Origin: an uncultured bacterium
GTDB taxonomy: Bacteria > Patescibacteriota > Andersenbacteria > UBA10190 > CAIZMI01
Assembly (NCBI GenBank): GCA_903934015.1
Contig: CAIZMI010000015.1
Location: forward strand, 424 to 64,423
Length of the DNA: 64,000 bases
Direction: 5' to 3'
This document shows, piece by piece, positions 1,776-4,700 of this stretch. Position 1 is the stretch's first letter. Each line of letters begins with the position of its first letter. The position numbers and the translations under genes are program-made. Below the pieces are notes generated by a model. The model did no database searches. It was not told the DNA's origin and saw only the letters and a program-made list of their open reading frames with translations.

Positions 1776-4700
1776 ATGACAGCCAAAGAAAAAGAACCTA
1801 AAGAAGGGAGTTATACTGCGGAAAATATTCAGGTTTTGGAGGGTCTTGAGCCTGTTCGAAAGCGTCCGGGGATGTATATCGGTGGTACGGGCTTAGACGG
1901 TCTGCATCATCTTATTTGGGAAGTGGTTGATAATTCCATCGACGAAGCGATGGCAGGTTATTGTAATGAAATTACCGTTCGCATGCTTCAGGGTAATACC
2001 ATTAGCTGTATTGATAATGGTCGAGGTATTCCAGTTGAAGTACACAAGCAAACGAAAAAATCGACCCTTGAAACTGTTTTAACTATTTTACATGCCGGTG
2101 GAAAATTCGGCGGTGGGGGATACAAAGTATCGGGCGGGTTGCACGGTGTCGGTGTTTCCGTTGTGAACGCACTTTCCACAACTCTTATTGCTGAAGTGGA
2201 ACGAGACGGGGGCGCTTATAGTCAAGAATTCCAACGGGGAAAGCCTAAACATAATGTAAAGAAAATTGGCAGCTCAAAAGGGCACGGAACAACGATTACC
2301 TTTACACCTGATCCGGAAATTTTCCCGGAAATTAAGTTTGATGCCGATCGTGTTATGCAACGTTTGCGTCAGCAGGCCTATTTAGCGCCGGGTGTCCGCA
2401 TTAATTTTTATGATGAACGAGAAGTTGGCAAGGTAACGCGTTACGGATTCTTTTTTGAAGGTGGTATCAAATCATATGTTGAGCATTTGAATTACGGTAA
2501 AGATGTAAAAAACGAAGAACCATTTTACGTTGGTAAACAAACCGGAGATTCATCGGTAGAAATTTCTTTGCAATATACCGATGCTTATACCGAACACATG
2601 CTGGCTTTTGTAAATACAATTCACACACCGGAAGGTGGAACGCATGTGGCCGGTTTTAGACAGTCGCTTACAAGGGCGATCAATGATTACGCCCGAAAGC
2701 ACAGTTTGCTAAAAGAAAAAGATGAAAATATGACGGCCGATGACGTGCAAGAAGGTTTGACTGTTGTTATTTCCGTAAAAATTCCCAATCCGCAATTTGA
2801 GGGTCAAACAAAAGCGAAACTCGGTAACCCAGAAGTTAGAGGTGCTGTGGCCGAAGTAATGTATGACGGCTTCCAGACTTACATGGAAGAACATCCGCAA
2901 GACGCGCGAGGAATTGTCGGTAAGGTTGTTTTGGCGGCGCGGGCTCGTGCGGCGGCCAGAGCGGCGCGTGAAACCGTATTGCGTAAGGGTGTTTTAGATG
3001 GTTTTGCTTTGCCTGGCAAGTTGGCCGATTGCAGTGAAAAAGACCCCAAGAATAGCGAAATATTCATTGTGGAGGGTGATTCCGCCGGAGGTTGTTTTTC
3101 GGGTGAGACGAAAGTGCAACTCGCTTCGGGAAAACAAAAAAGTTTTGAAGATCTAGTCGACGATTGGGCAAAGGGTATTTTACATTTTGGTTACGCGACG
3201 AATAAAGATGGAGATGTTCGAATTATTCCATTGGTGGCCCCCCGTATGACGAAAAAGGGCGCGGAAATTGTTGAAGTTGAGTTGGATAACGGTGAAATAA
3301 TTCGTTGTACACCTGATCATCTTTTCCGTTTAAGAGATGGCTCATATCGACAAGCTTGTGAATTAAAACTAATGGATAGTTTGATGCCGTTAAAGTTACG
3401 CTTTACCGAAAAGAAAGAAGCTCCGGCGGCAGGATATGAAATGGTTTGGATGAATGGGGAGCAAAAATGGAATCATACGCACCACTTGGCGGATGCATAC
3501 AATCTTAAAAACGGTTTGTACTTGAAGCAATCAGGCAGAGTGCGTCATCACATTGGTTTAGATAAGACGAATAATGATCCGAGAAATATCATTAGGATGA
3601 CCGATGAAGCACACATGCAACTGCATGCTTCTTTGGCGGGCGACACGTTTAGGGAACTGTGGAAAAATCCGCAATATCGGGTAAATAAAATTAAGGAGGC
3701 AAGTAAATCCGCGATTAAACAGTGGCAGGATCCCGAATATCGGAAGTATATGGCGGGTAAGGCTGTGGAACAAAGATTGAATCCAGAAATGAATAAGGTG
3801 GTAATGGATGGATTTAAAGTATGGTTTGAGAATTTGACCCCGGAACAATACGAACAATATTGTAGCCGTTCGCGAGATTTTTTCGGTGCGTATTGGAAAG
3901 ATGAACAACATCGAAAAGAACAGGCTAATCGTACGGCGCGGTATTTTGATACTCACCCGGAAGCGAAAGAGCAAAGAAAAGTAAGCGCGGAAAAAGAATG
4001 GTCTAATTTGGAATTGAAAAAATGGCGTTCAGAAAAAACAAAAGAGCAGTGGACTCCGGAATATAGAGAGAATCACATAAAAGCGGTAAAGGAATGGTGG
4101 AAGAAACATCCGGAACATGCCGAAAAAATTAGCCAAGCACGTCAAAATACGTGGGGAAACATGGGGAAAAGAGAACAGATTGAAAAAGGTCTTTCTGTTT
4201 GGCGCACCGGTAGCTCCCATGAACAAAAAAGGGGATTGATTATGGAAGGGAAAAAATTAAAAGCATTACTACTTCTGAATCAAGCCTTAAAAACCTCTGA
4301 ATATAGGGAAGCATATGACGCCATTCGTTTGCAAAAATCTCGAACAAGCTTAAGCTATCAGCGTCTTTTGAATGAGTATTATCATAAGGATGAAAGTGCT
4401 CTTTTGGAAGCGGCGAGAAACGTGAACTGCAAAGTTGTCGGGGTAACGAAGATTAAAGAAAAAATTGATGTTTATGATTTGACTGTTGAGAAATATCATA
4501 ATTTTGCACTAGCTTCCGGAGTTTTTGTTCATAACAGTGCCAAGCAAGGACGTGATCGTCAAACGCAGGCTATTCTGCCGTTGCGCGGAAAAATTCTCAA
4601 CGTCGAACGGGCCCGTTTGGATCGTATGTTAACATCCGAGGAAATTAAGATTTTGATTATCGCATTGGGAACGGGGATTGGTGAAGGATTTGAATTGGAG

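Follow-up and report, generated by a model that had tools for sequence, protein, structure and literature searches.

A gyrB intein with an HNH nuclease domain and a tryptophan-marked helical repeat in a Patescibacteriota genome

What does an intein that interrupts a gyrase gene carry between its two splicing lobes, and what might that cargo do for the element? These questions are raised by a 64,000-nucleotide (nt) stretch of DNA from an uncultured bacterium of the Patescibacteriota (Andersenbacteria; contig CAIZMI010000015.1 of assembly GCA_903934015.1, positions 424 to 64,423 of the forward strand), here called the window, in which the gyrB gene holds an intein of 481 amino acids (aa). A preliminary description made from the sequence had read the insertion as a GyrB intein with an HNH-type endonuclease domain and an array of tryptophan-containing repeats. 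Our analysis indicates that it is very probably a bifunctional homing intein, in which a splicing Hint domain encloses an insert made of an HNH domain and a NUMOD3-like array, the nuclease and DNA-tracking activities being predicted. As a gyrB homing intein it is ordinary, since its family is common in bacteria and archaea; it is only mildly novel, the novelty lying in a very widespread W-type, nuclease-associated repeat that still lacks a curated family or structure.

The host gene and the insertion are laid out as follows.

1776..5264 (stop codon included), + strand: GyrB precursor gene (Pfam HATPase_c, DNA_gyraseB, Toprim, DNA_gyraseB_C and Intein_splicing)
1776..3092, + strand: N-extein (69% identity to the GyrB N-extein of a Candidatus Andersenbacteria metagenome-assembled genome, MAG)
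3093..4535, + strand: intein, 481 aa, from Cys1 to His480-Asn481 and followed by Ser+1 (translation, intein hidden Markov models, HMMs, and full-length collinear relatives)
4536..5264, + strand: C-extein, with the remaining Toprim and the GyrB C-terminal domain (Pfam, translation)

The 481 codons of 3093-4535 (+) run without a stop from CFSGETKV to GVFVHN and lie between EGDSAGG and SAKQGRDR, splitting the Toprim motif of GyrB as EGDSAGG/SAKQGR (slashes mark splice points throughout). Removal of the intein in silico left a normal GyrB of 682 aa with an unbroken Toprim motif, and the Pfam Toprim match on the precursor picked up again right after the intein. Because the translation, the excised GyrB and the resumed Toprim match agree, the coordinates 3093-4535 and the junction residues of the preliminary description (Cys1, a terminal His-Asn and Ser+1, after EGDSAGG) are correct. 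The fused, intein-less gyrB junction reads ...GAAGGDTCNGCNGGNGGN/TCNGCNAARCARGGN.... The nearest matches of the extein were genomes of the candidate phyla radiation (CPR), including a Saccharibacteria MAG whose GyrB N-extein was 67% identical.

Within the intein, five parts could be delimited.

3093..3392, + strand: Hint N-lobe, aa 1-100, with block A (Cys1), block B (T73-P-D-H76) and the DSLMPL strand (TIGR01445, model, Foldseek)
3393..3638, + strand: HNH (His-Me finger, HNH_3 or I-HmuI-like) domain, aa 101-182 (PHROG, family-level HNH_3, BFVD folds)
3639..4247, + strand: repeat array, aa 183-385 (unit HMMs, AlphaFold2 model, composition)
4248..4427, + strand: conserved helical tail, aa 386-445, comprising the end of the last long helix and three short helices (model, family conservation)
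4428..4535, + strand: Hint C-lobe, aa 446-481, with blocks F and G (TIGR01443, model)

The element is an intact class-1 intein of the Hint superfamily with canonical splice residues. All class-1 residues are there (Cys1, T73-x-x-H76 of block B, His480-Asn481 and Ser+1), and three intein models matched above their cut-offs: Pfam Intein_splicing at E = 4.5e-18 (65.9 bits, cut-off 35.8), TIGR01445 for the N-terminal region at E = 1.7e-10 (41.7 bits, cut-off 24.5) and TIGR01443 for the C-terminal region at E = 7.3e-8 (32.4 bits, cut-off 15.6). In an AlphaFold2 model of the whole intein, built on 13 homologues with a mean predicted local distance difference test score (pLDDT) of 84.8, aa 1-100 and 446-481 formed beta-rich lobes with pLDDT > 90. 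Foldseek matched these lobes to solved mini-inteins (RecA, DnaE, DnaB and NrdJ-1, with structures 2IMZ, 1ZD7 and 4KL5 among the matches) at E-values down to 3.6e-6. When the junction residues were compared across the family they proved conserved, reading [IV]FVHN/S in about 75 related loci having both junctions.

The domain between the lobes had been described as HNH and not LAGLIDADG, an assignment that our searches bear out. PHROG families of HNH endonucleases matched the insert at E = 1e-5 and 1.3e-4, Pfam HNH_3 matched 20 of 28 non-redundant homologous domains (best E = 3e-6), and no LAGLIDADG or Hom_end family matched the intein in Pfam, NCBIfam or PHROGs. The signature begins WNHTHH and occupies intein aa 126-178; its layout, HH-x7-NN-x-P-x-N-x8-H, is that of I-HmuI-type enzymes. 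Across the 28 homologues 14 positions were invariant (Y115, W126, H130, D134, N137, H152, H153, K158, N161, P163, N165, R168, H174 and H178), and the window copy retains every one. The AlphaFold2 model shows strands at 150-153 and 166-169 and then a helix that starts at 171, the order of a beta-beta-alpha core. For a model of the insert alone (pLDDT 83.9), nearly all BFVD fold matches were HNH or homing endonucleases of phages; there were dozens of them, at probability ~1, aligned over 60-85 columns with a root-mean-square deviation of ~3 Å. A PDB sequence search with the HNH profile gave no real match, and a tblastn search of phages with the insert returned a single match, which is unannotated.

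Among viral folds, the one that matched the insert-only model best was BFVD A0A127AYL6 (352 aligned columns, E = 9e-5), a 539-aa 'Hint domain-containing protein' of Bacillus phage SP-15. This resemblance between models suggests a phage-encoded Hint protein with a similar insert of HNH domain and helical array.

Behind the HNH domain, about six repeats of W-x(2)-P-E-[YQ]-R spaced 17-25 aa apart had been proposed. The repeat is real, and it is looser than that pattern: the literal motif occurs once (WQDPEYR, at W211), with near misses at W190 (WKNPQYR) and W320 (WTPEYR), the remaining units are degenerate, and the distance from one Trp to the next varies from 8 to 35 aa. The array consists of about 10-11 helices of 14-23 aa, each with a (D/N)-P-E-x-R cap at its start and usually a Trp at its end. 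In the AlphaFold2 model 12 consecutive helices span aa 171-398, with the Trp usually ending one helix and (D/N)-P-E opening the next. The region is basic, with an isoelectric point (pI) of 9.5, and 11 of its 203 residues are Trp. A unit profile of 20 aa, derived from the intein family, found five copies with independent E-values below 0.05 (aa 187-204, 209-227, 266-281, 303-319 and 322-335), and its window-free version recovered four at 8 bits or more (aa 188-201, 209-223, 266-281 and 303-318) and a fifth, aa 322-334, at 7.9 bits. When aa 183-385 were shuffled 200 times with composition preserved, 199 shuffles contained no copy of at least 8 bits and the other contained one.

3651..3704, + strand: repeat unit 1 (11.1 bits; 8.6 bits with the window-free profile)
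3717..3773, + strand: repeat unit 2, the best copy (26.1 bits; 24.4 bits window-free)
3888..3935, + strand: repeat unit (10.6 bits; 10.2 bits window-free)
3999..4049, + strand: repeat unit (14.8 bits; 12.4 bits window-free)
4056..4097, + strand: repeat unit, one residue shorter between W and P (12.6 bits; 7.9 bits window-free)

About 11 units can be read at matching positions in better-preserved relatives (P0001, P0002 and L005), and whole units have been gained or lost between homologues. Searched alone against Pfam, NCBIfam and PHROGs, the repeat region returned no meaningful family at E <= 10; a match to InvH (E = 0.87) was taken as chance. The repeat profile likewise had no real match in a PDB sequence search, and none to GerD at E <= 10, the match to 8EOV being to a designed repeat protein that shares 'NxDPxxIxR'. 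The tail that follows the array forms helices at 404-415, 422-430 and 434-442 in the AlphaFold2 model and has no Pfam match. It is conserved across the family, including L006 and P0165, two deletion variants without repeats, and judging from the model it is possibly a helix-turn-helix anchor.

The same repeat is found far beyond inteins. An exhaustive HMMER search with the array profile retrieved 3058 cluster representatives at E <= 1e-3, 393 of them at E <= 1e-10. Of the 147 top matches examined, 134 had at least three units and only 17 carried the Hint and HNH part of the intein. Among 123 free-standing proteins the partner domains were GIY-YIG (26), HNH or HNH_3 (12), MTES_1575/DUF559/Vsr (13) and Mom (8), followed by the rarer NUMOD3 (7), I-HmuI NUMOD-like (2), I-TevI DNA-binding (2), TnsA-N (2) and phage endonuclease I (2). 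Free-standing nucleases of the GIY-YIG, HNH or PD-(D/E)xK type, T4-like Seg-like enzymes among them, make up the majority of the top matches. NCBIfam labels several of these proteins group I intron endonucleases, and PHROG 314 labels them homing endonucleases. The repeat as such is covered in free-standing proteins by PHROG 22215 ('unknown function'), with E-values down to 8e-48, and this family matches the intein weakly (aa 267-364, E = 0.006). The W repeat is thus a widespread nuclease accessory with neither a Pfam or NCBIfam model nor a solved structure. An array that accompanies this many nuclease folds and DNA-binding modules bears the signature of a nucleic-acid-targeting accessory, and the earlier suggestion of an unusual DNA-binding array survives in part: the array is real and plausibly, by prediction, DNA-binding, but with 3058 clusters it is not unusual.

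In eight W-repeat proteins a Mom-family domain, associated with DNA modification, takes the place of the nuclease (best E = 2.4e-23), and the repeat may therefore serve DNA-modifying enzymes too.

Four free-standing proteins (P0028, P0065, P0112 and P0121) have canonical NUMOD3 units, G-K-x-x-S-D-E-T-[KR]-x-K-[IM]-S, alternating in register with W units, W-x-D-P-E-Y-[RK]-x-[KR]-[MI]-S. In I-TevI, I-HmuI and I-BmoI the NUMOD3 units lie as helices in the minor groove (PMC3664794). Homology of the W unit to NUMOD3 is not statistically established at the sequence level, and since no NUMOD3 profile matched we filed the array as NUMOD3-like and not as NUMOD3.

The intein itself proved to have many relatives. 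A pattern scan over one genome per species, with alignment of the N-lobe and HNH domain, confirmed 130 loci, and sites and hosts were tabulated for the best 80 of these. Among these 80, about 45 occupied the present GyrB site (EGDS[AL][GA]G/C...FVHN/SAK or SAR) and about 35 lay in GyrA (GQGN[FW]G/C...FVHN/S[IVM]DGD). An HNH domain is thus not exceptional for GyrB inteins, contrary to what the preliminary description had supposed, the very same site holding about 45 of them, and the rarity apparent from a word-indexed search with the insert (13 matches) was overturned by the 130 loci and by the 3058 clusters. The GyrA-site members (loci L031-L078, for example L032 at 2464-3891, L039 and L045, and proteins P0011 and P0012) came mostly from CPR bacteria. 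Because the same lineage of Hint, HNH and W repeat occupies sites in GyrB and GyrA, one intein family targets both gyrase subunits. Further members lie in a dCTP-deaminase-like protein (P0013), and the RtcB intein model NCBIfam NF052663 also matches the intein. Hosts among the best 80 included Chloroflexi, Synergistetes, Actinobacteria (Micromonospora, Lentzea), many CPR lineages and, among the archaea, Woesearchaeota, Pacearchaeota and Methanosarcinales. The similarity of the inteins did not parallel that of their hosts, as is expected of a mobile element.

Members of the family fall into length classes near 482, 432 and 391 aa. The window intein is collinear over its full length, at 50-55% identity, with GyrB inteins of about 482 aa (L001, L002, L009, L011-L015, L017, L018 and L028). 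Other members have been reduced: L006 retains the tail but is missing the final HNH histidine and the entire array, L030 is a mini-intein of about 200 aa, L007 and L008 are interrupted, and a Planktothrix fragment lacks both the HNH domain and the repeats. Altogether, natural decay variants comprise L006, L007, L008, L030, P0005, P0008, P0010 and P0165, some with clean deletions of the array or the HNH domain and others with frameshifts or premature stops in the endonuclease region, for which assembly error is also possible. The loss of array or HNH domain in relatives indicates that splicing does not need the insert and that the insert decays readily, a pattern that fits a homing module.

The GyrB of L030, from a Synergistaceae MAG, carries a second, different intein 3' of the mini-intein, at HCVIMS/VDGESC, in which a segment LLGFFVAEGS looks LAGLIDADG-like.

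From these data we infer with high confidence that the Hint lobes rejoin GyrB and that the insert is, or was, a homing endonuclease for the intein-less gyrB junction. The split Hint domain (aa 1-100 and 446-481) would remove the intein from the GyrB precursor by the class-1 pathway, in which Cys1 performs the N-S shift, Ser+1 serves in the transesterification and Asn481 cyclises with the help of His480, and would thereby rebuild the Toprim motif EGDSAGG-SAKQGR. The insert (aa 101-445) would act as a monomeric, modular homing endonuclease in the style of I-HmuI and I-TevI. The HNH_3 His-Me finger would be its catalytic module, with H153 as general base and H152, N165 and H174/H178 as metal and structural residues. 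The helix units, W-x-(D/N)-P-E-(Y/F)-R, would follow the DNA with low sequence specificity, increasing affinity and reach, and the three-helix tail may serve as an anchor for the far end. Together the three parts would recognise and nick or cut the intein-less gyrB allele around the GGSAKQ codons, and repair from the intein-containing copy would spread the element. For the array we predict, with moderate confidence and by analogy, low-specificity DNA binding in the manner of NUMOD3, with the tail as a distal anchor.

Several results weigh against this interpretation. With Pfam HNH_3 the window's own HNH domain reached only 12.9 bits (E = 0.085; cut-off 24.8 bits), although the HNH assignment is firm across the family. 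Foldseek comparison of the insert with solved structures gave no significant match, the only hits being insignificant ones to I-PpoI and the type I-F HNH Cascade. Pfam NUMOD3 did not match the intein at E <= 10, and an hhalign comparison of W units with only three NUMOD3 units found the right register at P = 0.085. The geometry between the helices of the model is uncertain, with a predicted template modelling score (pTM) of 0.36-0.58. Several units of this copy are degenerate (WGNMGKR, WSNLELK). Finally, the units are amphipathic, with a stripe of W, Y and M, and a spacing of 34-35 aa is common in free-standing arrays.

The degenerate units mean that the endonuclease may be decaying, and the alternative that survives best takes this further: the insert would be an inactive remnant, passed on vertically because it can hardly be lost precisely from an essential gene, with its repeats drifting. 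The window has WGNMGKR where relatives have WQDPVFR, WTPEYR shows a one-residue deletion, the HNH domain scores below that of most relatives, and every stage of decay is seen within the family. The frame is nevertheless open across 481 codons, none of the 14 family-invariant HNH residues has been lost, the insert is full-length and collinear with its relatives of about 482 aa, and the unit boundaries and helix caps are preserved in the model. We therefore regard full decay as rather unlikely for this copy.

A different possibility concerns the array in general. Given the amphipathic units and the 34-35 aa spacing, the helices may pack as a solenoid instead of lying singly in the minor groove. 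The W unit could then be a distinct class of nucleic-acid-binding repeat, an alpha-solenoid of single-helix units of about 17-21 aa as opposed to isolated NUMOD3 helices, recruited by mobile nucleases with six or more catalytic folds and by Mom-like modifiers, with the length of the array (2-12 units) setting the length or reach of the target. We consider this quite doubtful; if it were true, the gyrase inteins of 391, 432 and 482 aa would be a natural series relating unit number to footprint.

It is also conceivable, if improbable, that the array does not bind DNA and is a spacer or protein-protein scaffold, a helical rope or solenoid like the DPEF-type helices of GerD, that holds the HNH domain at a distance from the Hint lobes or oligomerises the enzyme. 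The Pfam model GerD (spore germination protein core) matched 69 of the 123 free-standing proteins (best E = 3.7e-23), the units are amphipathic and often 34-35 aa apart, and the near-identical tandem copies in P0062 and P0074 speak against base-specific reading by each unit. Those GerD matches, however, depend on the repeated DPE[FY]-K motif, and the intein array matched no solved structure, GerD included, at E <= 10. The array is moreover basic, and it accompanies at least six unrelated nuclease or DNA-modification folds as well as NUMOD3, I-TevI DNA-binding and helix-turn-helix modules. The GerD and STI1-DP matches of the free-standing arrays were read as probably a repeat-driven resemblance and were not counted as established homology, the GerD ones being put down to the shared DPE[FY]-K cap. 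A further notion, that the repeats merely mirror the composition of a Lys/Glu-rich stretch of an AT-rich genome, with its raised A content and an AT skew of up to 0.43 at 3901-4200, is refuted and practically negligible, because four copies stand against none in 199 of the 200 shuffles, the units can be aligned position by position with those from GC-rich hosts (Micromonospora, Chloroflexi), where Arg and Ala replace Lys, and the Trp is 100% conserved at the marker position of the unit.

Other models also cross-matched the free-standing proteins: STI1-HOP DP matched 21 of the 123, and nitrile-hydratase/NHLP and lantibiotic leader models were seen as well. The cross-matching models share a W/x-DPE[FY]-[RK] helix-cap motif.

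The surroundings of the intein add detail on the gene and its neighbours. The window's list of open reading frames (ORFs) gives a single open frame on the + strand at 1233-5264, of which GyrB homology begins at MTAKEKE, nt 1776, the start that we picked on this basis; in public records the identical protein is called from 1701 as a 1187-aa product under the plain name 'DNA gyrase subunit B', and annotation pipelines already mark an intein domain in it. The 1343-aa length of the whole 'ORF' results mechanically from sequence free of stops and is an artefact. The gyrB frame stays open for about 180 codons 5' of the real start (1233-1775, +), and a 298-aa ORF in another frame (656-1552, +) overlaps this open stretch; GC content in the 656-1775 area is 0.54-0.55, above that of the rest of the region. 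Directly 3' of gyrB lies a 592-aa ORF (5297-7075, +) with no Pfam family on record and a predicted membrane-spanning stretch, FNWFFIFTPILLLTFAGFAVAFYGG. It is kept beside gyrB in the related contigs L081 and L083, and L082 has a 584-aa gene instead. Farther along the window, a 60-nt stretch at 55670-55729 (+) gave a short Rfam tRNA match (41 bits) just upstream of tRNA-Val (55825-55897); ARAGORN makes no call there, and the stretch is a candidate truncated or unusual tRNA. No second member of the intein family and no gyrA gene was found in the window.

For the window itself little is at stake, as it holds an ordinary homing intein that had been read correctly. The wider points are that a single Hint and HNH intein lineage, spread over phyla that are only very distantly related, has settled at conserved sites of GyrB and GyrA and is also present in a dCTP-deaminase-like and an RtcB-like protein; that a dedicated W-repeat profile would improve the annotation of homing endonucleases; and that the natural length and deletion variants of the array are a ready set for asking what the repeat adds to target recognition.

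Among known systems the closest are the cyanobacterial-type GyrB inteins, whose prototype, with splicing shown by experiment, is Ssp GyrB of Synechocystis PCC 6803. These interrupt the same host protein at the same site (EGDSAGG/C...HN/SAKQGR) and have the same Hint blocks (CTPDH-F-LRDGSY, DSLMPL and HNFALA-G-FVHN). They group with the class of about 432 aa, in which the order of Hint, HNH, W repeats and tail is the one seen here, whereas the window intein is longer (481 against about 432-435 aa) by roughly three extra helix units (aa 336-385). The N-lobe of the window intein is about 45% identical to that of a presumed Ssp GyrB sequence, and a search with this presumed sequence retrieved only related cyanobacterial fragments at 47-79% identity. 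Fragments P0161-P0165 from cyanobacteria are annotated as intein-containing GyrB. Ssp GyrB is said to be the intein in which an HNH domain was first described (Dalgaard 1997). Ssp GyrB is a natural intein with a putative endonuclease domain, and its mini and split forms splice (PMC3620165).

The insert also resembles the modular homing endonucleases I-HmuI (HNH) and I-TevI and I-BmoI (GIY-YIG), which share its layout of a small catalytic module, short basic helices and a small helical anchor, and in which the helices are of the NUMOD3 minor-groove type and a helix-turn-helix stands at the C terminus; I-HmuI has in addition an HNH_3-type nuclease like that of the window intein, a match at the level of the family. 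The register [ST/P]-[DE]-E-x-[RK]-x-K-[MI]-S is common to the NUMOD3 units and the W units in the mixed arrays of free-standing relatives. The differences are that the window enzyme sits in an intein and is not intron-encoded or free-standing, that its unit opens with W-x-D-P where NUMOD3 enzymes have G-K-x-H-S, and that the window type has about 11 units against 1-3 in I-HmuI, I-TevI and I-BmoI; Pfam NUMOD3 and I-HmuI_NUMOD-like had no match in the window protein, nor was there a significant match to a solved structure. The W unit has its own counterpart in the Seg-like homing endonucleases of T4-like phages. Unlike the window intein these have a GIY-YIG catalytic domain and no Hint domain, and they carry the same W-x-x-PEYR-x-K units as here, as in CAA7537962 of Shigella phage vB_SsoM_113, which reads WSNPEYRK, SPEYRKKMS, WKSDEYRNK and WNDPLIRK.

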